The notes: generated by a model from the sequence alone, not told the origin. A stretch of DNA of 16,905 nt from Candidatus Iainarchaeum sp. (GCA_038736825.1 JAVYME010000025.1:1-16905), one strand, 5' to 3'; counted from the stretch's first letter, positions 1 to 16,675 are shown. Made by a program: numbers and translations.

Positions 1-961
1 AAAAAATCTCGCTTTCACTTTGCAACAAGCCATTACTGGAAACCACCCGGTAAAAATACTTGGTTTTCGGAGTCAAACCGTAAACCACAATACTGTGCTC
101 GGATGTCTTAACACCATCAAATTCTGAAAAGCCAAGGCTTGCAGTGGTTCCATATTCAACCAAAGAGTCTGACTCAAAAGAGGTTTGCCAGTAAAAAACA
201 GCATAAGAAGAAAAAGGCAGAACTTTAACACTGCCAGGCAAAATTTCCAATGATTTCTTGACCAAAACGCATTGGTTGAAAGCATTGCACTCAAAGCCTG
301 TCTCGCAAGAACCACACTGTATTGATTGCCCGCATTCATTGCTTTTAGCGCCGCACTCGCCTGCCTTGCATGAAACCAGCGAACAACACTTGCCATCCAC
401 GCAATTCTTTCCCGAATTGCAACCACAAATAATTGTTCCATTGCAGTTGTTGCTGAAAGAACCGCATTTTCCAGAAAAGGCGGAACAGTCAACAGGCTTG
501 CACAAGCAAACACCTGCAAGGCAGCCTCCCTCGCAAAACTCTTCTTTTTCCCACGAACAATCAGAAGCCTGGTAACCACGCCAATTCTCCTTGCCAGGCA
601 AACACTTCCAGCCCACAACACACTGCAAAGGAGAAGGGGTAACAGTGGGAGTAGGAGTAGAACCACCACCAGGCTCCTCAGTACCAGGCTGAAAACTAGT
701 AGGAGTAGGAGTGGGCGTACCATCACTCGAACCATCATCCCCAGAACCACCACCAGGCTCCTCAGTACCAGGCTGAAAACTAGTAGGAGTAGGAGTGGGC
801 GTACCATCACTCGAACCATCATCCCCAGAACCATCATCGCCAGAGCCGCCAGAGCCCGGGCCAAAAGCCAAAATAGCTGGCTGGATTAATATAATCAAAA
901 CCAGAAGAAAGAAAAAAAACAAGGAAAGGCGAACGCCAAGCCAATTTTTATTTGAAGGCAT
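1..961 (-). CDS. Secreted Cys-rich surface protein, first 320 codons only (gene continues past the left edge)
   Basis: Absent from the ORF track because there is no stop inside the window. My hand translation of the minus strand from ATG 961-959 stays open to position 1. It reads MPSNKNWLGVRLSLFFFFLLVLIILIQPAILAFG (signal/anchor), then 2 x GSGDDGSSDGTPTPTPTSFQPGTEEPGG, then a Cys-rich region with two similar modules (KCGSFSNNCNGTIICGC... and ECGAKSNECGQSIQCGSC...). The last part is LPGSVKVLPFSSYAVFYWQTSFESDSLVEYGTTASLGF...HSIVVYGLTPKTKYFYRVVSSNG, which fits the W-x-T...YG...H...L-x-P-x-T-x-Y-x-YRV pattern of Fn3-like / purple-acid-phosphatase N-terminal domains. A TATA-like AAATATATATT lies at 990-1000 on the minus strand. 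Confidence 0.8.
   Translation of the reverse strand, partial: MPSNKNWLGVRLSLFFFFLLVLIILIQPAILAFGPGSGGSGDDGSGDDGSSDGTPTPTPTSFQPGTEEPGGGSGDDGSSDGTPTPTPTSFQPGTEEPGGGSTPTPTVTPSPLQCVVGWKCLPGKENWRGYQASDCSWEKEEFCEGGCLAGVCLCKPVDCSAFSGKCGSFSNNCNGTIICGCNSGKNCVDGKCCSLVSCKAGECGAKSNECGQSIQCGSCETGFECNAFNQCVLVKKSLEILPGSVKVLPFSSYAVFYWQTSFESDSLVEYGTTASLGFSEFDGVKTSEHSIVVYGLTPKTKYFYRVVSSNGLLQSESEIF
659..833 (-). repeat. Perfect 84-bp tandem duplication (about 2.1 copies) inside the CDS, encoding a 28-aa Gly/Ser/Asp + Pro/Thr unit
   Basis: Segments 659-742 and 743-826 are identical base for base by manual alignment. Identity continues 7 nt (827-833) into a diverged third unit. Confidence 0.85.
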
Positions 962-1088
962 TACAATCAACAAATATACACGAATCAGGAATATATATTT
1001 TTTCTTGATAAAACAAACAAAAAAAAACCAAAGAAAAGCTTAATAAAATTAACTGGAATAAGTTATAATTAGCTGGGTGGTGAGGTTC

Positions 1089-2351
1089 ATGAAATTAATT
1101 GAAAAATTCTTTCCAAAATTAAGCCTTTTTTTAATTCTTTTTTTTATTGTTTCAAACACGCATGCAACGAGTTGCAGTGCAGACAGAGACTGCGCACACT
1201 TAAATGAAACAATCAAACTTGACCAAAACTCTTGCGTTGGACAAGCATATACCTTTGAAAACATCCAAAGCAGCCTTCTTGGAAGCACCACTGGTGGAGC
1301 AGCCATTCCATACTTGATGGGCAAACAATACACTCAACAAATCCAAACAGGATACACAAAAACATACAGTTGCCAAAACAGGCAATGCCAGTTAACCTCC
1401 AGAGTGCCAATAATACAAAATTGCACTTATGGTTGCCTAATAACCCCAACACAATACGAAGGAAAAACATGGCATGATCTCTGCATTTGCAAACCAGGGT
1501 GGGTGAAAGACGCAAGGGGAAACCCAATAGTATACTGTGGACCAAACGGAAGCCGTTACGCTTATTACACTCACCTGGACTGGACTTGCGAAAAAATTGA
1601 AAGGATTGCTGGAATTTGCGGGATTGGCGAAAGATGCGTGGTAAAATCAGGGGAAACAACCTGTGAAACAATAGGCGGAGAACAACCAATAAACTATCCT
1701 GATGGAACACAATACACTTTCAAAATACCACACAATCCAACCCAGCCAATCACAATTGCTGTAATCCAAAACGGCAAAACAATCGCCCAAAAAGCAATAA
1801 GCAATCTAAGCGCAGAACAATACTTATTGAAAAACGGTCCAATCACCTCCAGCCAAGCTTATGCTTTTGCGCAAAGCACTGGATTGACTTCAATTGTGGC
1901 TTCAGCACTCCAGCAAAAAACAACAACCACTGCTTCCAGTAAGCCAAGCACAACCTATTCTGCATCATACAATGGCAGCACAAACTATTCTTCAACTCCA
2001 ATAAGAATGCAGGTTGTTGCCAGTGCCACAAACAGCCTTTCAGCCTATAGAGCGCCAACTGCAACCTACAAAACATATTCAACCACAAGCACAGCCAGCA
2101 CTGCAACATACGCTTACAGCACAAGCCAAACCAAAAGCACTTACACAAACAATTATTCTTCAAGCACAACCTATTCGCCGACAAAAACAACTTACAGCAC
2201 TGCAATTTCCCCTTATTCAACTTCAAATTACAGGATTCAAACAACAACCGCTTATAATCCGACAAGGACAGCATACTCTACAAAAAACCCCTACACAAGC
2301 GCTTACCGCGCCACAACTCAAACCACTGCAACAGTTTCAACATACAAGTAA
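1089..2351 (+). CDS. Secreted Cys-rich protein with a C-terminal Thr/Ser/Tyr low-complexity tail
   Basis: The ORF-track entry 1077..2351 starts at GTG. ATG 1089 is preceded by GGTGAGG (1079-1085, 3-nt spacer), so I start there. MKLIEKFFPKLSLFLILFFIVSNTHA/TSC looks like a signal peptide. The mature N-terminal ~270 aa has 14 Cys, including EGF-like CICKPGW (1482-1502). The last 146 aa (1911-2348) are T/S/Y-rich, and there is no C-terminal TM. Confidence 0.8.
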   Translation: MKLIEKFFPKLSLFLILFFIVSNTHATSCSADRDCAHLNETIKLDQNSCVGQAYTFENIQSSLLGSTTGGAAIPYLMGKQYTQQIQTGYTKTYSCQNRQCQLTSRVPIIQNCTYGCLITPTQYEGKTWHDLCICKPGWVKDARGNPIVYCGPNGSRYAYYTHLDWTCEKIERIAGICGIGERCVVKSGETTCETIGGEQPINYPDGTQYTFKIPHNPTQPITIAVIQNGKTIAQKAISNLSAEQYLLKNGPITSSQAYAFAQSTGLTSIVASALQQKTTTTASSKPSTTYSASYNGSTNYSSTPIRMQVVASATNSLSAYRAPTATYKTYSTTSTASTATYAYSTSQTKSTYTNNYSSSTTYSPTKTTYSTAISPYSTSNYRIQTTTAYNPTRTAYSTKNPYTSAYRATTQTTATVSTYK

Positions 2352-2468
2352 AACTGGCTGGCTGAAAACCTAAAACAGTTTAATTGTTTGAAGATGGTTT
2401 TTGCAGAAATGGCAAAAGCCAAGGGTTTCCTTTAAAAATTTTTTCCACAGCTTTTTTTAAAAGGGGGA

Positions 2469-3422
2469 ATGGCAGTGAATGAAAATTTGACAAAGCTAAA
2501 CATATCCATTTTTTTGACTACAGCGCTGGTTTTCGGCGCAATAGCCGCATTGCTTGGCTTGGTTTTACTGGTTTCAGGAGCCACCGGCGGAGAAGCCATT
2601 CTCTTGTGGATTTTCATTTCATTCTTTTTCATTTTCATTCAATGGTTTTTTGGCCCTGCAATAATCAAATTATTCACTCGCGCGAGAAAGGCTGGCGAGC
2701 AAGAGTTTCCCGAATTGCATGAAATGGTTGCAAGGCTGAGCAAAACCGCGGGAATTCCAAAACCCACTCTTTACATTGTTGAAAACCGTAACCCTAATGC
2801 TTTTGCTTTCGGGCGAACACAAAAAAGCGCTGGAATCGCAGTGCACACTGGGTTATTGCAGGTTTTGAACAAAGAAGAATTGGAGGGCGTTATAGCCCAC
2901 GAAATAGGGCACATAAAGCACCGGGATGTCACAGTAATGACTATTGCAAGCTCTCTGCCAGTGCTCTTGTACTTTTTGGTTGTATTGTTTGCTCCAAGGG
3001 ACCGCAACAAGGGCTTGGCTGGAATGCTGGCAGTCATTGTAGGCGGCATTATTGCCAGACTAATAGGGCAATTGCTTGTAATGTGGCTTTCAAGGAGAAG
3101 AGAATACTATGCTGACGCCTTTGCAGCCCATGCTACAAAAAAACCCTTGAATTTGATGAGCGCTCTCGCAAAAATCACTTACCGCATTGAACCAAAAAAC
3201 GAAAACGAGGGCTTAAAATCACTGTATATTGCCAATCCCTCTTTTGCAGAAAAGCAAAGCATTGCGGAAATAAGTGAAGCCCTGGCAAAAGGAAACAAGC
3301 AGGCAATAGAGGAAGCAATTGAAAGGGAAAAAAAACACGGAGCACTGGAACTATTCATGACACACCCGCTTACAGCAAAAAGGCTTGAAGCCCTCTGGAA
3401 AATAAAAAAAGAAGCCTATTGA
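2469..3422 (+). CDS. htpX: HtpX-like zinc metalloprotease (peptidase family M48), membrane-embedded
   Basis: HEIGH zinc motif at 2898-2912 (VIAHEIGHIKHRD) and a downstream RREYYADAFAA motif typical of HtpX. Hydrophobic segments flank the catalytic region, and the C-terminus reads THPLTAKRLEAL. A TATA-like TTTAAAAA lies at 2431-2438. Confidence 0.9.
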   Translation: MAVNENLTKLNISIFLTTALVFGAIAALLGLVLLVSGATGGEAILLWIFISFFFIFIQWFFGPAIIKLFTRARKAGEQEFPELHEMVARLSKTAGIPKPTLYIVENRNPNAFAFGRTQKSAGIAVHTGLLQVLNKEELEGVIAHEIGHIKHRDVTVMTIASSLPVLLYFLVVLFAPRDRNKGLAGMLAVIVGGIIARLIGQLLVMWLSRRREYYADAFAAHATKKPLNLMSALAKITYRIEPKNENEGLKSLYIANPSFAEKQSIAEISEALAKGNKQAIEEAIEREKKHGALELFMTHPLTAKRLEALWKIKKEAY

Positions 3423-3577: not shown

Positions 3578-5344
3578 TTATTTTATTCCGAGTTGTTTTT
3601 TCATTTCTTGGTGGGGTGGTGGGGTTCTGAGGGCGGCTGCGGCTTTTAGTCTTTGTTTTTGTTTTTCGCTTATTTGGTGTCTTTCAAAGGCTTTTTCTAG
3701 AAAGGTTTCTTTTTTGTGGATTTCTTCCCTTATTTCGTTCCATTGCCAGGGAGTCATTTTTTCGAATGCGTTTTTTTGCGCTGTTTTTAGTGCGGTTCTG
3801 TCTCCAAAGAATAGGCCGCAGAATAAGAAGGCTGTGTTTTTGTCGCCTGTGTTAGTGGGGTTTACGTGAATGTGTTCTTTGCACAAGGGTAGTTTTTTTT
3901 GTCTTGCGATTTCTTGGAATCTTTGAGCGGCTTTTGGATTGGTGGCTATTATTGCGTAGTCTATGTCGCTTGTTGGTTGAGCGTAGCCTTTGGATGTGCT
4001 GCCAAAAACTGTTATGCCTGTGAATTGTTCGCCGAATTCTTGTTTGAGCTGGCTTGCAATGTTTTTTAGTGTGCTGGTTCTTTCAAGGATTTCTTTTAAG
4101 TGGGTTGTTGCTGCAAAGGGTTTTCTGGTTGCAAGCAATAGCCAGCGGGTTTTTTTCTGTCTGGCTAGGGCTTTTTGCGCTTCAATTGAAATTGCGGGGT
4201 TTTCGCTTTTGGCGAGTTTTTCTATTTTTGGGGTTTTTCTTTTTTTTTCAAGGATTTCAATTAAAGATTTTGCGGCAGCTTGGGCTACAAAAGGGTGTGA
4301 ATCTCTTGCGAGTTGTTCGAGTTCTGGAATGGCTTTTTCGCCTATTTTAACCAGTTCTCTTGCTATTTTTTCGCGAAAACTGGCTTTCAAGCCTTTTGCG
4401 ATTTTTTTTAGTTCTTGCAGGTTTCCTTTTTTTGCGTGAAATTCTATTAAGGCGTTTGTTCCGGTTTTGCTTAAAAACGGGTTTGGGTCTTTTGCCATTC
4501 GCTCGAGTTCTGAAAGGTTTTCGTTTTTTAAATGAATTCTGGCTATTTCGCTTGCTGCAATCCAGGGCGCTCTGTCAGAGAATTGTGGAGGGTTTCTTGC
4601 AATTCTTTCAAGTTCTTGGATTTTTCCTTGGCTGGCAAGTATTTGGATTATTGAGTTTGTGGCTGCCTCGCGAACCAAAAGGCTTCCATCTCTTGCAAGG
4701 CGTTCAAGTTCAGGCAAGGCTTTTTTTCCAAGTTTTGCCATTGATATTGCGCTTTGCTGGCGAACCATTTCACTTGAATCTCTTGACAATTCAAACAATT
4801 TTTCTTTTTTTTCACGGATTTGCGCTATCGAGTTTATGGCTTGCCGGCAAACAAAAGAATGGGAATCCCTTGCAAGGCGTTCTAGTTCTGGCAAGGCTTT
4901 TTCGCCCATTAAGCCAAGCGCTCTTGCGGTTGCCTCGCGAACCCGCCATTCTGGATCTCTCGCCATTCGCTCCAATTCCGGCAGGTTTCCTTTTCTTGCA
5001 TGCACTTCTGCCAAAGTGTTCAAGGCAATACTGCTAGTCCGCCATTCTGGATCCCGAGAGAGTTTTTCCAGTGTTTGGGGATTCAAGCATTTCAGGATTC
5101 GCTTGTCAGTTAAGGCTCTTTCAAGCGCAGTTTTTCTAATCACTGGATCACTGCTTTCAAGCATTGCTTGAAGCGCTTTAACGTTAACCCTTGCTTTTTG
5201 CAGTTTTCGCAATGCATGATCGCTTGGCACAAACTGTCTTGGAAAAGTCGAAGGCGGCGGCTTAATGCCTATTGCCATTATTTCCTTTCTGGCTTGCACT
5301 CGTTGCTCGCGCAACCGATTGCACTTTTTTTTCCTTGAAAGCAT
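3578..5344 (-). CDS. HEAT-repeat (PBS-lyase-type) array fused to a C-terminal pol-beta-superfamily nucleotidyltransferase domain
   Basis: About 10 tandem ~30-aa units with consensus LPELERLARD-x3-VR-x2-A (for example LPELERMARDPEWRVREATARALG and LPELERLARDGSLLVREAATNSI). They are followed by the NTase signature ITVFGSTSKGYAQPTSDIDYAIIA (G-S...D-x-D, 3959-4006). The start is uncertain: ATG 5344, or the internal ATG 5278 (MAIGIK...). Confidence 0.8.
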   Translation of the reverse strand: MLSRKKKCNRLREQRVQARKEIMAIGIKPPPSTFPRQFVPSDHALRKLQKARVNVKALQAMLESSDPVIRKTALERALTDKRILKCLNPQTLEKLSRDPEWRTSSIALNTLAEVHARKGNLPELERMARDPEWRVREATARALGLMGEKALPELERLARDSHSFVCRQAINSIAQIREKKEKLFELSRDSSEMVRQQSAISMAKLGKKALPELERLARDGSLLVREAATNSIIQILASQGKIQELERIARNPPQFSDRAPWIAASEIARIHLKNENLSELERMAKDPNPFLSKTGTNALIEFHAKKGNLQELKKIAKGLKASFREKIARELVKIGEKAIPELEQLARDSHPFVAQAAAKSLIEILEKKRKTPKIEKLAKSENPAISIEAQKALARQKKTRWLLLATRKPFAATTHLKEILERTSTLKNIASQLKQEFGEQFTGITVFGSTSKGYAQPTSDIDYAIIATNPKAAQRFQEIARQKKLPLCKEHIHVNPTNTGDKNTAFLFCGLFFGDRTALKTAQKNAFEKMTPWQWNEIREEIHKKETFLEKAFERHQISEKQKQRLKAAAALRTPPPHQEMKKQLGIK

Positions 5345-8792: not shown

Positions 8793-9026
8793 ATTCAATG
8801 GCAATGCCCAAAATGCGGTTCAACCGAAATAGAAAAAGGGCGAACAATCTCTGAAAAAAAAATTGTCTTTAAAGGCGAAACCCAAAGCGCACTCGAAATG
8901 GGACACGAAATAACCCCCCATGCATGCAAATCCCGTGGCTTCACAGAATTCTATACGGAAATCACAAAAAAAAGAAGCTTGGGCTCGCTCTTCACCTTGC
9001 AGCCAGCTGGTCCTCCAAAACAATAA
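8793..9026 (+). CDS. Candidate small Zn-ribbon protein (77 codons) lacking a canonical start codon
   Basis: Absent from the ORF track. The frame from 8793 reads IQWQCPKCGSTEIEKGRTISEKKIVFKGETQSALEMGHEITPHACKSRGFTEFYTEITKKRSLGSLFTLQPAGPPKQ*, with an in-frame TAA at 8784-8786 upstream and the stop at 9024-9026. CPKCGS plus H-x-C...G-F-x-E-F-Y resembles small zinc-ribbon proteins. The only near-N-terminal start options are ATT 8793, or ATG 8798 which is 1 nt out of frame. Confidence 0.4.
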   Translation: MQWQCPKCGSTEIEKGRTISEKKIVFKGETQSALEMGHEITPHACKSRGFTEFYTEITKKRSLGSLFTLQPAGPPKQ

Positions 9027-9173
9027 ATTCGAACAGTAAGCAAAGGAATAGAAGAAACAAAAGAACGCCAAAAACCACGCTCAGCCGCGCCCCCCTTTCA
9101 GCCACACCACTCAACCCATCCAAAAAAAAAACACTACAAAAAAGTGCAAAAAAAATGCCTTTCTCGAATAGGC

Positions 9174-9179
9174 TTTTAA
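9174..9179 (+). promoter_or_regulatory. TATA-like box (TTTTAA) 26-31 nt upstream of the GIDE-like gene ATG
   Basis: GGCTTTTAAGTAGAACGTCTTATTTTTTCTTGCA is followed by ATG. No SD motif is visible. Confidence 0.3.
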
Positions 9180-9204
9180 GTAGAACGTCTTATTTTTTCT
9201 TGCA

Positions 9205-10002
9205 ATGGCTCATGGTTTGATAGGCTTTGCCGCCAGCATTTTTGCCATTTCAACTGTTATCTTTTTTTTCTTGACGGGAATTACCTTTATTCTTTTGATT
9301 TTTTCATTGCTTTTTGGTTTCAACTTTCCTTGGCCTAACCCGTATCTTGATTTTTTCGCGCTTGGCGGTTTTTTTTCTTTGGAATTTTGCCTAGTTTTTG
9401 CTGGCATTGAACGTGTTTTGCTTGCCAGGCTTATAAGGAAAAAGGAAACGTCCAGCATTTTAATGCTTGAAAAGGGTCTTAACGAGGTTTCAGGCACTGT
9501 CGTGCCACTCGAGGGCAAAACAGTTGTTTCACCGCTTTCAGGCAAAAACTGCGTTTATTATTCTTATAAAATTGAAAGGGAAGGGATAAAGGATTGGCAT
9601 ACAGTGAAAGAAGAGGTGATTGCCAACCCCTTTCTTTTAAAGGACAGTTCGGGCCAAATCCTGGTTTTGCCAGAGGATGCAGAAATGCAGTTAGCGGGCG
9701 AGATAAAAAAGAAGGGAAAGGAAAGGCATTCAGAGCAAATAATTTGCCCTGGCGACAGGCTTTTTGCCGTCGGTGTTGTCGACGACGCTGGACGAGTTTC
9801 AAAAGAGATTGGTGTTCCATTTTCATCCAAGTTTGTGTTAAAAAAACGCGGTTTTTTCTTTGCCTCCCCCTGCATCATCTCAAATCAAAGCAAAGAAACA
9901 CTCTTGAAAGAATTAAAGGACGAATCGCTTTCTTTTTTCGCCATAGCAGCGGTTTTCCCGGTTTTAATAATTGTGGTGGCTTTGCTGGAATGGCTGTTCT
10001 AG
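9205..10002 (+). CDS. GIDE-domain-like membrane protein (N-terminal TM helices, soluble domain, C-terminal TM)
   Basis: The stretch VSGTVVPLEGKTVVSPLSGKNCVYYSYKIEREG...WHTVKEEVIANPFLLKDSSGQILVLPEDAEMQ matches my recollection of the GIDE family core (SP-x-SG-x-x-CVYY ... pF-x-l-x-D-x-sG-x-i-x-V). There are hydrophobic N-terminal segments and a C-terminal FFAIAAVFPVLIIVVALLEWLF. A TATA-like TTTTAA lies at 9174-9179. Confidence 0.6.
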   Translation: MAHGLIGFAASIFAISTVIFFFLTGITFILLIFSLLFGFNFPWPNPYLDFFALGGFFSLEFCLVFAGIERVLLARLIRKKETSSILMLEKGLNEVSGTVVPLEGKTVVSPLSGKNCVYYSYKIEREGIKDWHTVKEEVIANPFLLKDSSGQILVLPEDAEMQLAGEIKKKGKERHSEQIICPGDRLFAVGVVDDAGRVSKEIGVPFSSKFVLKKRGFFFASPCIISNQSKETLLKELKDESLSFFAIAAVFPVLIIVVALLEWLF

Positions 10003-10369: not shown

Positions 10370-10375
10370 CAAGAG

Positions 10376-10459
10376 TGCGGGGTAGCAGATTCGAACTGCT
10401 GAAGGCACTAAGCCACAAGGCCCTCAACCTTGCCGGTTAGACCGCTCCCGCAACCCCGC
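10376..10459 (-). tRNA. tRNA-Leu (anticodon GAG), type II with long variable arm, no encoded CCA
   Basis: Minus-strand sequence: GCGGGGTTGCGGGAGCGGTCTAACCGGCAAGGTTGAGGGCCTTGTGGCTTAGTGCCTTCAGCAGTTCGAATCTGCTACCCCGCA. My manual fold gives a 7-bp acceptor stem, a 3-bp D stem with A14 and GG in the loop, and anticodon stem CAAGG/CCTTG with loop TTGAGGG (anticodon GAG, G37). It also gives a 15-nt variable arm (GGC/GCC stem), T arm AGCAG-TTCGAAT-CTGCT, and discriminator A. Confidence 0.9.
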
Positions 10460-10562: not shown

Positions 10563-10997
10563 TTATTTTATTTCTCTGGCGATTTTTTTCTGGAATTTTT
10601 GTGCTTCGCCTTCTTGGTAGGAGTGCTTTGGCCACTTGAATCCGGCTTTGTCGTTTTCAAAGCGTGGGATTATGTGCATGTGAAAGTGCATTATTATTTG
10701 TCCTGCTGTGCTGCCATTGGATTGAATGAGGTTGATGCCGTCGGGTTTTAGGGCTTTCTGGATTGCGATTGCGATTTTTTTTGTTGCAATTATTGTTTCT
10801 TTTAGTTCTTTTTCTGGGATTTCTTGAAGGCTTGAAAAGTGTTTTTTTGGAATTACTAAAGTGTGGCCTTTGTTTACTGGGGCTATGTCTAGAAAGGCGA
10901 GAGTGTTTTTGGTTTCATGGATTTTGGTGCTTGGAATTTGTCCTTTGGCGATTTTGCAGAAAATGCATTCACTGGAATTGTTTTTTTTCAATTTCAA
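10563..10997 (-). CDS. HIT-family (histidine triad) nucleotide hydrolase/transferase
   Basis: The motifs are ECIFCKIAKGQIPSTKIHETKNTLAFLDIAPVNKGHTLVIPKKHF and the triad HFHMHIIPR (10674-10688). The ORF-track start at 11126 overlaps the upstream gene and adds 43 non-HIT residues. I prefer TTG 10997, which overlaps the upstream TGA as TTGA, or TTG 10991, which lies 7 nt after GGGTGG at 10999-11004. Confidence 0.85.
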   Translation of the reverse strand: MKLKKNNSSECIFCKIAKGQIPSTKIHETKNTLAFLDIAPVNKGHTLVIPKKHFSSLQEIPEKELKETIIATKKIAIAIQKALKPDGINLIQSNGSTAGQIIMHFHMHIIPRFENDKAGFKWPKHSYQEGEAQKFQKKIAREIK

Positions 10998-11365
10998 GCC
11001 ACCCTTATCTGGGCTAAATTTACGTTTCTGAAAACAAAAGAGACTGGGCCTGCGGCTGTTGCTGCTTTCAGGCTGCCATGGATTGCGCCTGTTCCATTGC
11101 CTCTTACTACAATGGATAAATCCCATAAAAAGCCGTCTGTGAGCGCGTGGATTTTGCCGCTTACTGAACTGATTTCATAGGTTTTGCCGCTCAAGTCTTT
11201 GTGCAACTGGCAGGTTTTGCCAATCATTGAAATCGCTATGTTTTTGATGCTGCCGCTTGCGGTTACTGGCACGAAAACCATTGCTTGTTTTTCGCGCATT
11301 GTTTTTTGGATTGCTTCAATTATGTTTTCGTTGTCGTTTATTTTTATTTCCACTAATTCTTGCAT
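10994..11365 (-). CDS. PPC (DUF296) domain protein
   Basis: MQELVEIKINDNENIIEAIQKTMREKQAMVFVPVTASGSIKNIAIS...YEISSVSGKIHALTDGFLWDLSIVVRGNGTGAIHGSLKAA...VSFVF resembles the PPC/DUF296 beta fold (EI-x-S-x-sG-x-i ... H-x-s ... G-G-x-L pattern). I place the start at ATG 11365, which follows GGGGTGAT (11372-11379) by 6 nt, with TATAAA at 11403-11408. The ORF-track start at 11512 would add 49 basic low-complexity residues. Confidence 0.6.
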   Translation of the reverse strand: MQELVEIKINDNENIIEAIQKTMREKQAMVFVPVTASGSIKNIAISMIGKTCQLHKDLSGKTYEISSVSGKIHALTDGFLWDLSIVVRGNGTGAIHGSLKAATAAGPVSFVFRNVNLAQIRVA

Positions 11366-11517
11366 TACCATATCACCCCGGAAAGAGAATTGCAAAAGAG
11401 CATTTATAGAAGGCGAATAAACTTTTAAACGTTTTTGCTGGCTGGCATTTTTTTGGCGGTTTTTGAAGGCACTAGAAAAAAGTTTTTTCGGGTTTTGCCG
11501 AACGCTGGGCAAACCAA

Positions 11518-11527
11518 TTTAAAATAA
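11518..11527 (+). promoter_or_regulatory. TATA-like box (TTTAAAATAA) 28-37 nt upstream of the A2M ATG, in the divergent intergenic region shared with the PPC gene
   Basis: TTTAAAATAATAAAACTAGTAATTATTGGGTGATTTT is followed by ATG. The PPC gene has its own TATAAA at 11403-11408 on the minus strand. Confidence 0.3.
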
Positions 11528-11554
11528 TAAAACTAGTAATTATTGGGTGATTTT

Positions 11555-14500
11555 ATGAAAAAAATGCTTTGGTTTTTTGTTTTTGGCTTGTTTTTTGGGC
11601 AAGTGTTTGCGCAGGCGGTGGTGGAAGCGCCTGCAGTAAACATTGTTGGTTCAAGTGGTGGCTATTATCCTTACAACCGCTATTTTTACATTAGCATTAA
11701 TGAAAAGTTTTTGTTGGGTGACAGGGTTGAAGCACAGGTTTGCGGTTCAGGCATTGCAACCCTTGAAGTTTACAGGTTTGAGGATTTGTCAGTGTTGATT
11801 AAGCGAATGTCGGCTTATTCCAGCTCGCAACCCGAAGAATTACTGAAAAACGAAAAACCTTTAAAGGTTGTAACGGTTCAGCTTGGAATGGGTGAAGAGT
11901 GCAAGAAAGCGGACCTGCAAATTTCACAGGGAGGGCTTTATTTTGTAAAGGGTTATTCCACAGAGTCAGAGCAAAAACCAACTGCGTTTTTTTCAGTTGA
12001 AGAAATTGCCTTAATGGTGAAATCCGGAAAGCAAAAAAAAGTGTTTTTTGCAGTTGATGCCAAGTCAGGAAAACCCTTAAGCGGGGTCGAAATATTCTTG
12101 ATAGAGGCAAAAAATTCTTGGTTTGAAGAAAAACCGGAAATAATTGAAAAAAGCATTGGTTTCACCAACAATACTGGATTGCTGGAATGGCAGAGCGAAA
12201 AACCAAAGCAAAACTATTCCTTGCAAATGTTTATTGCAAAAAAAGGCAGTTCTCTTGCCTTTGTGACAGACTACACTTACTGGTACGAGCAAGAGCAAAA
12301 AGCATTATACCTTTTCACTGACCGCCCTATTTACAGGCCAAACCAGAGGGTTTTCTTTAAGGGAATTCTTTGGAATACTGGAATTCAAAAAAGCGCTGTT
12401 GAAGGCGAAAAAATAGAGATAAAAATCAGGGATTCAAAGTATGCTGAGGTTTTCAGGGAAACCTATACCACTGGAGCGCTTGGTTCTTTTGAGGGCAGTT
12501 TTTTGCTTGGAGAGGAACCACCCCTTGGATATTATTATGTTGAGGCAAGAAAAGGCGAACAATATTTGGGGAGTGCGTCCTTTCAAGTGCAAGAGTACAG
12601 AAAACCAGAATTTGAAGTGAAAGTGAATCCTTCAAAGGAAGTGTTTGTTGGCGGTGAAAGAGCGCGCGTGGAAATAAAGGCAGAATATTTTTTCAAGGCA
12701 CCAGTGCAAAACGCAAAAACAATGTATAGAGTGTATTCTTCTTACTATCAAAGCCCTTGCTATGGTTATTGGAGGTGCGCTTACTATGAACTCCAAGAAA
12801 CAGGTTATTATGATTCTTATTATCCTCCATATTATTATGGAAGAAACCTGATTATAGAGAGCGAAACCATTACAGACAGTGAAGGCAAAGCCTTTATAGA
12901 GTTTGACACAAACGCTGACAGAGAGAAAAGGTATTATATTGAAGCAACAGTTGTGGATGAAAGCAACCGGCAGGTTAACGGTTCAGGGCAAATAATTGTA
13001 GCGCCAGCGCTTTTCAGGCTAACAGTAATGCCTGACAAGTGGTGGTATGCTGAAAACGAAAAAGCCAGAATAACGGTTTCATTGAACGATTTTGAAGGCA
13101 ATCCGGTTAACGCAGAGGCTTCAGTGAAAATTTTTAAATTAAACTGGAACATTGACTTGAAAAAATACGATCAAACAATAGTGAAACAGGAAACCTTGGT
13201 GGCAAACGAAGGCAAAGCAGAATTCTTTGCAGTTTTGCCGGCAGGAGAATACTTGATAGAAGCAACAGCGGTTGACGCAAAAGGAAACACAGTGAAAGGG
13301 CAAAACTCTTTCAGTGTGAGCTCTCAAGCAATCGAAAGCAAAATCCAAGAATTGCAGGCATCGCTTGACAGGGACATATACTTGGCAGGCGAAAGCGCGA
13401 TTGTGACAATAAAAATGCCAGAGGCACCGTTTTATGCGCTTGTTTCAGTTGAAGGCACAGATCTTTTCTCTTATGAAACGGTTTACTCTGAAAAAAACAG
13501 CCTATCCTATCAAGTGGACATAACAGAAAACCACCAGCCCAACGCATTCGCATACATAACAGGGGTTCAGGGCGGAAAAGTCTTCACAAAAAGCCTTCGC
13601 TTAAACGTTCCACCCAAAGAAAAGAAAATAGATTTAAGCATTCAAACAAACTCCCAATACTACAAGCCAGGCGAAAAAGCAAAATACACAATAAAAGCCA
13701 CATCCCAAGGACAACCCATTGAAACAGAAATCGCAATAATGATAGTGGACGAAGCAATCTACCAGCTAGCAAAAGACAACAAGCAAGACATTTTCAAATT
13801 CTTCTTCAAACCAGAATACAATCAAGTGACAACCCAATGGAACCTGGGAGGATACTATTACGATTACCATGCAAGAAAAACACTGGGCGGCGAAGGCCCA
13901 ATGCCAACGCCTTCTGCGCCTCCAATCATGGAGGAAGCCCAAAAAGTTTCAGGGGAAAAACAGTACGCTCAAGCAGAGGTAAGGAAAACCTTTGCAGACA
14001 CAGCTTACTGGAACGCTTTCCTTAAAACCGATTCCCAGGGAATAGCGGAACTGGAAGTGCCATTGCCGGACAATCTCACAACATGGCGTGCGACAGCAAT
14101 AGCAAACTCCAAAACAAAGGCAGGCGCAAGCGAAAACAAGATTGCAGTCACAAAAAACCTGATTGCAAGACTGATAATGCCCAAGTTTGCAGTGAAAGGC
14201 GACGAATTCACAGTAAAAGCAATAGTGCACAACAGCCTTCCCGAAATGAAAACCGCACTCGTAAAAATTGAAGCCGACAACCTGGAATTCCCGGAAGGAA
14301 ACGAAATGGAAATAACAATTGCAACAGGCAAAAGCGAAACCGCAGAATTCAAGGCAATAGCAAAAAAATGCTGTTCTGCAAAAATAAAACTGCAAGCCCT
14401 AACAGACACAGAATCAGACGCTCTGGAAATAACAATTCCAGTGCTGCCCTGGGGCGTGAAAGAATTTGAAACAATTTCAGGCGAAGCAGGGCAAAAAACC

Positions 14501-16675
14501 ACACTCGACATTGTCATTCCAGAAAACACTGACCGAGAAGCAGACAAAATAATAATTAACCTGAATCCCACGCTTGCAGGCACAATAATTGACTCCCTGG
14601 AATACCTTACCGGATACCCGTATGGCTGCGTTGAACAAACAATGTCAAGGTTTTTGCCGGACGTGGTTGTAGCCCAAACCCTGAAAGACTTGGGCTTAAA
14701 AAACGAAAAACTGGAAACAGAATTACCAGACATGGTGGAAAAAGGATTGCAAAAACTTTACTCAATGCAATCCTCTGACGGAGGCTGGGGCTGGTGGTAC
14801 AACGATTCATCACAACCATATATGACAGCATACGTAATGTACGGTTTAACCCTTGCAAAAAAAGCCGGTTTCAAGGTAAGAGAAACAGAATTCGAAAAAG
14901 GACTAAAAGCCCTCAAAGAAAAATTCCCAAACGCAACATACTCTCACTATTATTACACTGAAAACTCTTACAAAACAGAAAAAGACCGCGAACTCCAAGC
15001 ATTCATTTCCTACGTTTTATACTTGAACGGCGATACAAGGTTCGTGAAAGAAGTGAAAGACTCCAAAAACGAGTTAAGCGATTACGGAAAAGCCCTGCTG
15101 TTATTGCAATTGGACTCAAAAGAAGAAGCAACACCAATACTAGAAGAACTATCCAAAAGCGCTTCCTGTGATCCAGTGTTCTGTTCCTGGAAAGGCAAAA
15201 CCTGGCGCGCTTACTGGAGCGAAAAAGACATGGAAACAACCGCAATGGTTCTAAAAGCACTCGTGAAATGGACACCTGAAAACGAAAAAACAAGAAAGGC
15301 AATAAACTGGCTTTTAAGCAAAAAACAATACAATAGATGGCGATCCACCCAGGACACAGCAACAACAGTAATGGCACTGGCTGACTTCCTGAAATACTCA
15401 GGAGAACTCGAACCAAATTACACTGCAAAGCTTTACATAAACAATGAATTGAAAAAAGAATTCTCTGTCACCAAAGAAAACCTTTTCAATGCAATCGAAA
15501 AAACAGAAATAAAAATGCCTGAAAAACAAACCCAAGTGCGCATTGAAGTAGAAGGAAAAGGCAAACTCTATTACTCCATAACAAAAGAATACTTTTCAAA
15601 ACAAGAAAAGATTCCAGCAAAAAGCAATGGCATTACAATAAAAAGAACAATGGAAAACACAATCAAAACCGGACAGGAAACAAAAATAACACTATCCATT
15701 ACAGCAGACAGAGAATACGATTACGTGGTAATAGAGGACTTTTTGCCAGCAGGAACAATAGCAGTCGACTCAAGGCAAAGAAACAATTATGGATACTATT
15801 ACTGGGACTGGCATCCATACTGGTACTCTCAAATAGAATTCAGAGACCAAAAAACAGTGTTCTTCTTCAACTACCTCAAACAAGGCACAACAGAAGTAAC
15901 CTACACCATAAGAGGAGAAGTGCCAGGCACCTACCAGCACTTGCCAGCACAAGCCCACGCAATGTACAATCCAGAAATAAACGGTTACTCTGAAGGAAAC
16001 ACCTTCACAATAACAACAGAAAAAGCCTTTTCACTGCCAAAAATAGAAGTGCACCCGCACTACATCTGGATTTACCCGCACCCCATACCATTAAAAGAAA
16101 CAATCAAAACAACAATACTGGACTCAACAGGAAAAGAAATAATAACAACAACAACACAACCACAAAACGGAAAAATTGAAGTGCCGCTCCCAAAAGAACT
16201 CGCAAACGGAACCTATTCAGTGAAAGTGTCAACAGAAAACACAAAAACAACAAAAGAATTCCAAGTCGGAAAAGTGGAAATAAAAAAAGCAGACCTTTCC
16301 AGCACAAACTACTTCAACGACTTGCTGGAAAGAACAATCCAGCCAAAAACCGCAAACCCAGCGCAAACCTTTTGCACCAACACCGGCGGCACATGGAACA
16401 ACGGAAAATGCAATTGCCCGAAAGGAAAAAACTGGTTGTTCGGAATAGGCTGCATTGCAAGCGAAACAATCCAAACACCCATTCCGCCACTCCCGCCAAA
16501 ACCAGTGGAAATAAACACTGCATTGCTGGCACTAACCGCAATACTCATATGCTACATAATCCTGGCCTTTGTTTTCTTCATGAAATCAAAGCCTGTGACA
16601 CAAGAAAAAACAACAACAGAAAAAACACAGCAAAAAACAGCAAAAGAATCGCGGTGGAAATTCAAAGAAAAATAA
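11555..16675 (+). CDS. Alpha-2-macroglobulin family protein with intact thioester motif, N-terminal signal peptide and C-terminal TM anchor
   Basis: GGGTGAT (11545-11551) is followed by ATG 11555, giving MKKMLWFFVFGLFFGQVFA/QA. A2M hallmarks are FTDRPIYRPNQRVFFKG, FQVQEYRKPEFEVKV, RKTFADTAYWNAFLKTDSQGIAELEVPLPDNLTTWRATAIA and the thioester site GYPYGCVEQTMSRFLPD (CVEQ at 14627-14638). Further hallmarks are the TED-like SSDGGWGWWYN...YMTAYVMYGL and the C-terminal EFRDQKTVFFFNYL...AHAMYNPE. The TM helix INTALLALTAILICYIILAFVFFM (16511-16582) is followed by a Lys-rich tail. Confidence 0.92.
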   Translation: MKKMLWFFVFGLFFGQVFAQAVVEAPAVNIVGSSGGYYPYNRYFYISINEKFLLGDRVEAQVCGSGIATLEVYRFEDLSVLIKRMSAYSSSQPEELLKNEKPLKVVTVQLGMGEECKKADLQISQGGLYFVKGYSTESEQKPTAFFSVEEIALMVKSGKQKKVFFAVDAKSGKPLSGVEIFLIEAKNSWFEEKPEIIEKSIGFTNNTGLLEWQSEKPKQNYSLQMFIAKKGSSLAFVTDYTYWYEQEQKALYLFTDRPIYRPNQRVFFKGILWNTGIQKSAVEGEKIEIKIRDSKYAEVFRETYTTGALGSFEGSFLLGEEPPLGYYYVEARKGEQYLGSASFQVQEYRKPEFEVKVNPSKEVFVGGERARVEIKAEYFFKAPVQNAKTMYRVYSSYYQSPCYGYWRCAYYELQETGYYDSYYPPYYYGRNLIIESETITDSEGKAFIEFDTNADREKRYYIEATVVDESNRQVNGSGQIIVAPALFRLTVMPDKWWYAENEKARITVSLNDFEGNPVNAEASVKIFKLNWNIDLKKYDQTIVKQETLVANEGKAEFFAVLPAGEYLIEATAVDAKGNTVKGQNSFSVSSQAIESKIQELQASLDRDIYLAGESAIVTIKMPEAPFYALVSVEGTDLFSYETVYSEKNSLSYQVDITENHQPNAFAYITGVQGGKVFTKSLRLNVPPKEKKIDLSIQTNSQYYKPGEKAKYTIKATSQGQPIETEIAIMIVDEAIYQLAKDNKQDIFKFFFKPEYNQVTTQWNLGGYYYDYHARKTLGGEGPMPTPSAPPIMEEAQKVSGEKQYAQAEVRKTFADTAYWNAFLKTDSQGIAELEVPLPDNLTTWRATAIANSKTKAGASENKIAVTKNLIARLIMPKFAVKGDEFTVKAIVHNSLPEMKTALVKIEADNLEFPEGNEMEITIATGKSETAEFKAIAKKCCSAKIKLQALTDTESDALEITIPVLPWGVKEFETISGEAGQKTTLDIVIPENTDREADKIIINLNPTLAGTIIDSLEYLTGYPYGCVEQTMSRFLPDVVVAQTLKDLGLKNEKLETELPDMVEKGLQKLYSMQSSDGGWGWWYNDSSQPYMTAYVMYGLTLAKKAGFKVRETEFEKGLKALKEKFPNATYSHYYYTENSYKTEKDRELQAFISYVLYLNGDTRFVKEVKDSKNELSDYGKALLLLQLDSKEEATPILEELSKSASCDPVFCSWKGKTWRAYWSEKDMETTAMVLKALVKWTPENEKTRKAINWLLSKKQYNRWRSTQDTATTVMALADFLKYSGELEPNYTAKLYINNELKKEFSVTKENLFNAIEKTEIKMPEKQTQVRIEVEGKGKLYYSITKEYFSKQEKIPAKSNGITIKRTMENTIKTGQETKITLSITADREYDYVVIEDFLPAGTIAVDSRQRNNYGYYYWDWHPYWYSQIEFRDQKTVFFFNYLKQGTTEVTYTIRGEVPGTYQHLPAQAHAMYNPEINGYSEGNTFTITTEKAFSLPKIEVHPHYIWIYPHPIPLKETIKTTILDSTGKEIITTTTQPQNGKIEVPLPKELANGTYSVKVSTENTKTTKEFQVGKVEIKKADLSSTNYFNDLLERTIQPKTANPAQTFCTNTGGTWNNGKCNCPKGKNWLFGIGCIASETIQTPIPPLPPKPVEINTALLALTAILICYIILAFVFFMKSKPVTQEKTTTEKTQQKTAKESRWKFKEK

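Follow-up and report, generated by a model that had tools for sequence, protein, structure and literature searches.

A thioester-containing alpha-2-macroglobulin homologue with a predicted C-terminal membrane anchor in Candidatus Diapherotrites

How can an alpha-2-macroglobulin (A2M) be kept at the surface of an archaeal cell, and what would it do there? The prokaryotic A2Ms characterised so far are lipoproteins in the periplasm of Gram-negative bacteria, where they are believed to protect the envelope in concert with a repair penicillin-binding protein (PBP). The question is raised by a contig of Candidatus Iainarchaeum sp. (GCA_038736825.1 JAVYME010000025.1:1-16905), the whole 16,905 nt of which were analyzed and are called the window. 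A complete coding sequence on the plus strand at 11555..16675, running from ATG to TAA with the stop codon (16673-16675) included, encodes a thioester-containing A2M-family protein of 1706 amino acids. At the window's 41% G+C, 1706 stop-free codons would arise by chance with a probability of ~1e-47. An earlier note on this DNA had described the product as a thioester-bearing A2M homologue with a signal peptide and a C-terminal transmembrane (TM) anchor, and every motif quoted there was recovered in the open reading frame (ORF), including the TGC codon of Cys1025 at 14627-14629. The product is identical to the NCBI protein P0001, 'MG2 domain-containing protein [Candidatus Diapherotrites archaeon]', and is already deposited, under this generic name only. 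The sequence and the predicted structure indicate that the protein is probably a cell-surface covalent protease trap.

The protein is a bacterial-type, thioester-bearing member of the A2M family. Five Pfam domains of this family were matched several-fold above their gathering scores, namely MG2 (89.8 bits), A2M_BRD (70.4 bits), A2M (70.5 bits), TED_complement (69.9 bits), and bMG10 (101.2 bits); MG3 was matched when a fragment of the protein was searched in isolation (28.1 bits). The family assignment proposed in the earlier note is confirmed by these profile matches. The N-terminal array of MG beta-sandwiches, together with the scaffold of the bait-region domain, occupies 11687..13855 (+) according to Pfam and the AlphaFold2 model. 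Within this part, residues 251-345 belong to MG2, residues 347-386 to the start of MG3, and residues 600-738 to A2M_BRD. The A2M (MG7) domain of PF00207 follows at residues 816-904 (14000..14266, +) and is modelled as a beta-sandwich with a predicted local distance difference test (pLDDT) value >90. The thioester domain (TED; PF07678) spans residues 1007-1282 (14573..15400, +). The bacterial MG10 domain (PF17973) covers the full profile at residues 1340-1474 (15572..15976, +) and carries AMYNPE, residues 1469-1474, at its end. The alignment of MG10 with SaA2M of Salmonella and ECAM (YfhM) of E. coli runs to the C-termini of these two proteins.

AlphaFold2 was used to predict two overlapping models from a 68-sequence alignment, covering residues 1-882 (pLDDT 84.5) and residues 801-1706 (pLDDT 85.9), with a pTM of 0.77 for both. 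The serial beta-sandwiches match those of ECAM, SaA2M, and C5. The TED is predicted to be an alpha/alpha toroid of 12 helices, mostly with pLDDT >90, and aligns to the TEDs of TEP1, SaA2M, and ECAM. The best structural matches of the N-terminal half are ECAM 5a42 (E=5e-41) and SaA2M 4u48 (E=2e-38). The C-terminal half matches the native forms of C3, C5, A2ML1, CD109, ECAM, and SaA2M with TMq values of 0.48-0.57, whereas the matches to activated forms are poor (TMq 0.24 for C3b, 0.33 for trypsin-activated ECAM, and 0.34 for induced A2M). Because the native conformers match far better than the activated ones, the predicted packing corresponds to the unreacted state. The structure prediction thus agrees with the A2M fold expected from the sequence. 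When the sequence was compared with PDB entries, insect TEP1 (E=1e-29), human A2M (1e-25), and SaA2M (2.5e-23) were matched, with SaA2M and ECAM in the range of 1e-21 to 1e-23. This rough equidistance indicates that the protein is a member of a separate prokaryotic branch and not a close YfhM orthologue.

The thioester site is intact. GYPYGCVEQT spans residues 1020-1029, and the thioester motif C1025-V-E-Q1028 lies at 14627..14638 (+) within Y1021-P-Y-G-C-V-E-Q-T. YPYGCVEQT lines up, position by position, with the YPYGCLEQT of SaA2M and ECAM. The Cys, Glu, and Gln of the motif are invariant in 120/120 homologues, and the position four residues before the Cys is Tyr in 111 of them and Phe in 9. 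Tyr1021 is taken to be the counterpart of the SaA2M Y1175 'lock', the residue mutated in PDB entry 4u4j. The motif, the Tyr lock, and the nearby TED residues are strictly kept at an identity of 34-63% within the clade of closest relatives described below, which indicates selection on the thioester chemistry. C3 and TEP1 carry a catalytic His in a TED segment that varies among the clade members and is partly missing from them; in a low-confidence alignment of this indel-rich segment, no conserved His was found at that position. The absent His is weakly suggestive of an A2M-like preference for amines.

The bait region was assigned to residues 768-807 (13856..13975, +) on the basis of disorder and hypervariability. 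The pLDDT drops to 30-41 over these residues, which form the sole long low-confidence stretch in the folded body. The same block is the most indel-rich and least conserved one among the eight relatives (34-63% identical elsewhere). The Pro/Gly/charged stretch HARKTLGG...YAQAE (residues 772-808, 13868-13978) lies directly before RKTFADTAYW (residues 810-819), which represents the conserved R-x-x-F-x-D-T-A-x-W start of PF00207 that comes directly after the bait. The bait had been placed before RKTFADTAYW in the earlier note, and its low confidence and hypervariability at the canonical position bear this out. Another disordered segment was observed within an MG domain. This Tyr-rich loop (residues 402-427, 12758-12835; CYGYWRCAYYELQETGYYDSYYPPYYYG) has a pLDDT <50 and holds C402 and C408; the bacterial relatives are likewise Tyr-rich at its position, and the loop could be a second exposed site.

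How the protein would be held at the membrane is suggested by the region behind MG10. After AMYNPE there are 232 more residues, with a beta segment, a 4-Cys module, a linker, a hydrophobic helix, and a basic tail, as had been described before for about 230 residues. The bacterial relatives stop ~19-25 residues past the MYxPE motif of MG10. The first element is an extra Ig-like beta-sandwich at residues 1482-1571 (15998..16267, +), predicted by AlphaFold2 mostly with pLDDT >90 and present in 8/8 anchored members of the clade. It resembles MG2 (19 bits), Big_13, and Por_Secre_tail (25-27 bits) domains, and giant Big_13-rich proteins contain as many as 26 copies of it. The second element is a 4-Cys module with the pattern C-x11-C-x-C-x11-C at residues 1607-1633 (16373..16453, +) and the consensus C..TGG.W..G.C.CP.G..W.FG.GC. 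It is modelled as a short folded unit (residues 1602-1639, pLDDT 80-90), is kept in P0001-P0005, and is missing in P0006-P0008. No Pfam family was matched by this module, and a faint DUF333 resemblance was seen at its start only. The module is a disulfide-rich repeat of ~35-40 residues, with the wider consensus LC..TGG.W..GkC.CP.G..Wd...GC, that occurs in 2-8 tandem copies in unrelated secreted proteins of 99-2338 aa (P0122, P0123, P0126, P0132, P0133, and P0134), one of which also has a cytochrome c domain. Since both the beta-sandwich and the 4-Cys module recur in other proteins, they can be regarded as mobile extracellular modules that would form a stalk here.

A low-pLDDT, Pro-rich juxtamembrane linker, PIPPLPPKP (residues 1642-1650, 16478..16504, +), leads to the C-terminal TM helix at residues 1653-1677 (16511..16585, +). 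The helix is supported by hydropathy and by an AlphaFold2 helix at residues 1655-1677. The hydrophobic segment itself (residues 1653-1676, 16511-16582) reaches a Kyte-Doolittle 19-residue mean of 2.92. Within the last 90 residues, the Kyte-Doolittle maximum is 2.75-3.52 in P0001-P0008 and <=1.25 in the other 112 homologues. The helix with a following basic stretch is found in 8/8 anchored clade members and in 0/112 other homologues. The Lys-rich tail (residues 1678-1706, 16586..16672, +) is disordered in the AlphaFold2 model and has 9 K/R versus 4 D/E. Hydropathy, the modelled helix, its conservation, and the positive-inside rule point to a type I topology in which the N-terminus faces outward and the C-terminal tail lies in the cytoplasm. 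The C-terminal TM segment claimed in the earlier note is hence supported by both the model and the eight close relatives.

Sorting by a type IX secretion system (T9SS) also came into question for the same region, as the isolated fragment of the protein matched Por_Secre_tail (TIGR04183) at residues 1511-1569 with 27.4 bits versus a cut-off of 23. T9SS sorting was rejected because the domain is internal, with ~135 residues including the TM helix behind it, and because the host is archaeal. MG2, Big_13, and FlgD_ig match the same region, and as judged from these sequence matches the Por_Secre_tail hit reflects a shared Ig-like fold.

The rarity of the extension was apparent from database searches. 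When 1.84 billion representatives were searched exhaustively with just the extension as query, no more than 17 proteins were found. A profile search limited to the C-terminal extension returned one fragment and did not recover the query clade, presumably due to the low-complexity words of the TM helix and the Lys-rich tail. When GTDB genomes were scanned with the clade alignment, only bacterial loci were present among the matches listed, and none of these 80 loci aligns past query residue ~1502. Overall, the anchored variant is limited to about ten sequence clusters among 5.8 billion.

At the N-terminus, a Sec-type signal peptide is predicted at residues 1-22 (11555..11620, +), with cleavage after VFA or AQA. 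The sequence MKKMLWFFVFGLFFGQVFAQA shows an n-region, an h-region, and an AxA-type cleavage site, and is free of Cys as had been noted before; AlphaFold2 models a helix at residues 2-19. Similar signal peptides are present in 8/8 anchored clade members. Since the signal peptide has no Cys, a lipobox is absent. The first 62 residues are Cys-free, and a lipobox regular expression remained unmatched in 8/8 anchored clade members. A lipobox and adjacency to pbpC are the defining features of the ECAM/SaA2M class (PMC3735191). No transglycosylase or transpeptidase (PBP-like) domain was found among the window genes, and an uncalibrated regular-expression scan for GT51 motifs found none in the window or in the related loci L001-L004 and L085. 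The absence of lipobox and pbpC claimed in the earlier note is therefore confirmed, but its distinctiveness is not. A lipobox-like motif is matched in only ~8/112 other homologues, and GT51 motifs lie within 6 kb in 1-2/80 bacterial loci by the same kind of uncalibrated scan. Bacterial relatives in the same branch are mostly without both, so this absence is not special to the archaeal protein. The novelty implied by the earlier note was overstated also in a further respect, since archaeal A2M homologues with CxEQ had already been published (PMC8416519).

Phylogenetic analysis of the 120 best homologues was performed by neighbor-joining with 60 bootstraps. P0001-P0008 and the truncated P0022 were monophyletic in 60/60 bootstraps. 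Among these homologues, C-terminally anchored proteins occur only in this nine-member clade, of which eight members have the anchor and one is truncated. Its sister sequences P0012, P0014, and P0016 come from bacteria, Armatimonadetes in the case of P0016. Four conserved Cys pairs characterise the clade, 63/116, 402/408, 939/940, and 1205/1210, and are missing from the 111 bacterial homologues, save for a Cys at the 1210 column in 7 of them. The vicinal pair C939-C940 (14369-14374) is invariant in 8/8 anchored members and found in 0/111 bacterial homologues. This pattern suggests disulfide stabilisation of an exposed ectodomain in an oxidising location. The truncated member P0022 (2068 aa, from a 17,755-nt NCBI contig) has a Cys-rich long N-terminal extension behind a signal/anchor sequence, CGYSTNATCSAHSECKSGGGCSGEVCEG..., stops inside MG10, and lacks most of the clade-specific Cys pairs.

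The hosts of the clade are archaeal wherever the source can be assessed. The window is the whole of an NCBI contig labelled 'Candidatus Diapherotrites archaeon', the same label is attached to P0002, and P0007 is labelled Altiarchaeota. The 288-kb contig that encodes P0004 carries genes for an A-type ATP synthase and has the gene order HIT(-)/PCC(-)/A2M(+)/EamA(+) as in the window. This order is common to the window, L001, and L002, and L001 carries A-type ATPase genes besides its synteny with the window. For the related protein P0138 (L085, a 189-kb contig), the immediate gene neighbors are an S12-S7-aEF2-aEF1alpha-S10 cluster and archease. Upstream of the A2M gene, a TATA-like box, TTTAAAATAA, lies at 11518..11527 (+), 37 nt 5' of the start codon, and a GGTGA Shine-Dalgarno-like element lies at 11545-11549. 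TTTAAA(A) boxes are found at a distance of 31-38 nt before four genes of the window: the tRNA-Leu gene and, counted from their start codons, the genes for A2M, EamA, and M48. A search for a sigma-70-type promoter before the A2M gene found none. The box pattern is consistent with an archaeal promoter and falls short of proof; it agrees with the archaeal look attributed to the flanking signals in the earlier note, as does the archaeal rather than Gram-negative origin of the contig and its relatives. Taken together, the labels, synteny, archaeal neighbor genes, promoter boxes, and bacterial sisters argue for vertical inheritance in the archaeal lineage after a probable ancient bacterial acquisition. 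The gene was probably acquired from bacteria by the ancestor of a small archaeal clade that comprises Diapherotrites and relatives.

A mechanism can be proposed that starts from the established family membership, motifs, architecture, anchor, conservation, and archaeal host. The protein would be exported by the Sec pathway, after which the signal peptide would be cleaved. It would be retained in the cytoplasmic membrane as a type I protein by one C-terminal helix, with the basic tail inside. Because of this C-terminal attachment, the ectodomain of ~1630 residues would be placed on the outer membrane face, under or around the S-layer. The Ig-like domain, the 4-Cys module, and the Pro-rich linker would serve as a stalk, and the clade-specific disulfides would stiffen the ectodomain. 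A foreign protease would cut the exposed bait at residues 768-807, and the MG/TED body would rearrange. The buried Cys1025-Gln1028 thioester would then be uncovered and attacked by a lysine of the protease. The protease would be covalently held at the surface and sterically kept from large substrates such as envelope proteins, as in the 'snap-trap' of the homologous monomeric ECAM. Thioester formation, bait cleavage, trapping, and the protected target, which may be the S-layer or an episymbiotic cell, are proposed by analogy with characterised A2Ms. This whole explanation, a membrane-tethered covalent protease trap re-fitted for an archaeal envelope, is considered reasonably probable.

Several points weigh against it. 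To our knowledge, no archaeal A2M has biochemical support. The basic tails of several clade members are very short, which makes the C-terminal ends of the clade resemble sorting signals. The native-like conformation predicted by AlphaFold2 may merely echo the majority of the training data. No consistently linked protease, immunity, or envelope-repair gene was found in the window, L001, L003, L004, or L085, and therefore the genomic context gives no functional support.

The thioester could be directed at cells rather than at proteases. The protein would then be a complement- or TEP-like covalent tagger or adhesin, with a surface thioester that is activated by bait cleavage or contact and bonds to a host or competitor cell. 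Insect TEP1 is indeed the top PDB sequence match (E=1e-29), before SaA2M (2.5e-23), and surface proteins with VIT-VWA, PKD/VWA, and CarboxypepD_reg domains are encoded near A2M in related loci. The membrane anchor would hold the reactive domain on the producer cell, as an adhesin requires. Makarova et al. set archaeal A2M/TEP proteins in a context of inter-microbial conflict and surface Ig domains (PMC8416519). However, the protein has the build of a bacterial monomeric A2M, with bMG10 and an N-terminal half similar to ECAM and SaA2M, and its 40-residue disordered, hypervariable bait is a hallmark of broad-spectrum protease traps. The TED is close to the membrane-proximal C-terminus and would be poorly placed to reach another cell. 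The lack of a conserved His at the C3/TEP1 position, where it promotes hydroxyl reaction on surfaces, speaks weakly in the same direction. Diapherotrites have also been described as possibly free-living, which counts against a tagger. Such a function is regarded as unlikely. A protease-triggered 'harpoon', in which a partner protease cuts the bait and the TED bonds covalently to the partner envelope for host attachment or non-self tagging, is given a slightly smaller chance again.

The mode of attachment and the retention of trapping can be questioned separately. The C-terminal helix and tail might be a sorting signal that is cleaved by an enzyme like an archaeosortase/exosortase or a sortase, after which the protein is moved to lipid, to the S-layer or cell wall, or released. 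A C-terminus in three parts, in which a hydrophobic helix stands between a linker that is Pro-rich or variable and a basic cluster, would fit, and the tail has only 3-9 residues in P0003, P0004, P0005, and P0125. Yet no PGF-, PEF-, PEP-, or other NCBIfam CTERM model was matched at E<=10, in a search whose HMMER filters can lose short models, and no pre-helix signature motif is conserved among the eight relatives. For these two reasons a permanent type I anchor is favored. Unlike known signals, the tail is 29-30 residues here and is long in P0002 and P0008, and a sortase or archaeosortase gene is absent from the window; a cleaved sorting signal is improbable. A structural or scaffolding envelope protein that has kept the A2M fold and lost trapping, by analogy with the thioester-less MagD, has a similarly low probability. 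MagD is part of a multiprotein envelope complex in which its inhibitory role is unclear, and the synteny of the archaeal gene is conserved without protease-related neighbors. But MagD-type proteins have no Cys and are encoded in a six-gene mag operon, which is absent here, and a scaffold would not call for a thioester motif, a Tyr lock, and neighboring TED residues that are kept so strictly at 34-63% clade identity.

The proposed protease trap was further compared with known systems. It resembles ECAM/YfhM (4ziq, 4ziu, and 5a42) and SaA2M (4u48) in being monomer-sized, with multiple MG domains, ~1600-1700 residues, and the BRD, TED, and bacterial MG10 domains. The YPYGC(L/V)EQT block, including the Tyr four before the Cys, and the bait before MG7 are shared as well. 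ECAM and SaA2M are exported, tethered to the cytoplasmic membrane, and turned toward the extracytoplasmic space, as is predicted here for the archaeal protein. However, the sequences are remote, with phmmer E-values of 1e-21 to 1e-23 and 14-19% identity in structural alignments. A C-terminal TM helix takes the place of the N-terminal lipobox Cys, so that the molecule would be attached by its opposite end, with TED and MG10 near the membrane. The ~230 extra C-terminal residues (Ig-like domain, 4-Cys module, and linker) and the four extra conserved Cys pairs are further differences from ECAM and SaA2M. There is also no pbpC neighbor, and the archaeal host has no context of a peptidoglycan-synthesis PBP.

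The nearest relatives are bacterial A2Ms annotated as 'MG2 domain-containing protein' or YfaS (P0009-P0120, L005-L084), with 27-36% identity over ~80% of the length, from Acidobacteriota, Armatimonadota, Bacillota, Chloroflexota, and Planctomycetota. They share the same Pfam architecture and a GC[VTAI]EQT thioester, and mostly have a plain signal peptide, no lipobox, and no pbpC nearby. In contrast, all 111 full bacterial homologues lack a C-terminal hydrophobic helix, and the extra Ig-like domain, the 4-Cys module, and the clade Cys pairs are missing from them as well. The protein also follows the MG-BRD-MG7-CUB/TED-MG8-like plan with GCxEQ known from insect TEP1, human A2M, A2ML1, and CD109, and complement C3, C4, and C5, and the native packing of these eukaryotic thioester proteins is reproduced by the model (TMq 0.52-0.57). 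CD109 is also membrane-tethered at its C-terminus, via a glycosylphosphatidylinositol (GPI) anchor. Unlike the eukaryotic proteins, the archaeal one has a bacterial-type MG10 and extra N-terminal MG domains. Anaphylatoxin, C345C, and LRP-receptor-binding functions are absent, as is a conserved catalytic His, and tetramers are not indicated. The type II A2M MagD lacks the thioester Cys, is encoded in the six-gene magABCDEF operon, and belongs to a multiprotein envelope complex with an unclear inhibitory role (PMC3735191). Assignment to this class was ruled out by the thioester Cys and by the neighbors HIT, PCC, and EamA in place of mag genes.

Homologues from other archaea and from small bacteria have been described. 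The archaeal A2M/TEP proteins listed by Makarova et al. (2021) number 27 and come from 24 arCOG genomes, for the most part of Halobacteria and Methanomicrobia (PMC8416519). These proteins have an intact CxEQ, Ig/MG domains, usually a signal peptide, and varied domain organisations, and some from Methanomicrobia were judged to be recent acquisitions from bacteria (PMC8416519). A C-terminally TM-anchored or DPANN form goes unmentioned in the text of the survey, whose genome table includes Diapherotrites (PMC8416519). Vampirococcus lugosii, an epibiont of the candidate phyla radiation (CPR), has membrane A2M-domain proteins of 1871-2368 aa that were proposed to shield the cell from proteases released by a host, and whose mode of anchoring goes undescribed in the text (PMC8080830). 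Both cases concern large surface or membrane A2M-domain proteins of ultra-small single-membrane prokaryotes, and the protective idea is the one raised in the earlier note; unlike the Diapherotrites protein, those of Vampirococcus belong to bacteria (Patescibacteria/Absconditabacterales) (PMC8080830). In the literature outside subscription journals, no report was found in which A2M and Diapherotrites are brought together or an A2M with a C-terminal TM anchor is described.

The gene neighborhood was also inspected. A gene for a PCC-domain protein (10994..11512, -; PF03479, 33.6 bits) is divergent from the A2M gene, and its start is probably internal, at ~11366. The HIT gene (10563..11126, -) is a mechanical ORF that overlaps the PCC ORF; because of this overlap, internal true starts are probable for both. 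The syntenic locus L001 encodes a HIT protein of 136 aa and a PCC protein of 123 aa. A functional link to the neighbors was rejected, as the HIT hydrolase, the PCC-domain protein, and the EamA transporter are syntenic but functionally unrelated and are divergently or separately transcribed, and no partner is found clade-wide. The Altiarchaeota-type loci L003 and L004 have another context, in which a gene for a VIT-VWA protein precedes the A2M gene, which is followed in both loci by DUF371 and five small unknown genes. In L004, the VIT + VWA gene at 2-2662 (+) abuts the A2M gene, which starts at 2701. The pair of VIT and VWA is also present in the heavy chains of the eukaryotic inter-alpha-trypsin inhibitor. 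On the L085 contig, the S12 gene at 85-2037 (+) is intein-split (Ribosom_S12_S23/Intein_splicing/Ribosom_S12_S23, 650 aa).

Farther genes of the window encode tRNA-Leu, a GIDE-domain protein, a P-type ATPase, a HEAT/nucleotidyltransferase protein, and an M48 peptidase. The tRNA-Leu(GAG) gene, without an encoded CCA, was located by ARAGORN at 10375..10459 (-), with a TTAAAA box 33-34 nt upstream. Rfam at gathering thresholds returned nothing in the window, the tRNA-Leu included. The GIDE-domain protein (9205-10002, +; 265 aa; PF12483, 43.8 bits) is preceded by an overlapping ORF at 8924-9220 (+); its domain, here in a DPANN archaeon, takes its name from an E3 ubiquitin ligase of eukaryotic mitochondria. 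The product of 3578-5344 (-), 588 aa, combines a HEAT-repeat array (HEAT_2, 102.7 bits) with a C-terminal Pol-beta-type nucleotidyltransferase, which is an unusual pairing.

What has been found is an anchoring and architecture variant within a known family, and no new kind of system. It overturns nothing and opens no long-standing question, and it is of use for work on the A2M mechanism and on archaeal envelopes. In this clade, the thioester trap has been moved to single-membrane archaea and re-anchored by its opposite end, and a stalk and extra disulfides have been gained. Since the bait, TED, MG10, and Tyr lock were all kept through this change, the clade represents a natural experiment on the indispensable parts of an A2M. 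It also illustrates the adaptation of A2Ms to a different envelope. If active, the protein would be the first membrane-integral A2M and would give the first functional evidence of a protease-directed surface defence in DPANN archaea, in parallel to the role proposed for A2M proteins of CPR epibionts.

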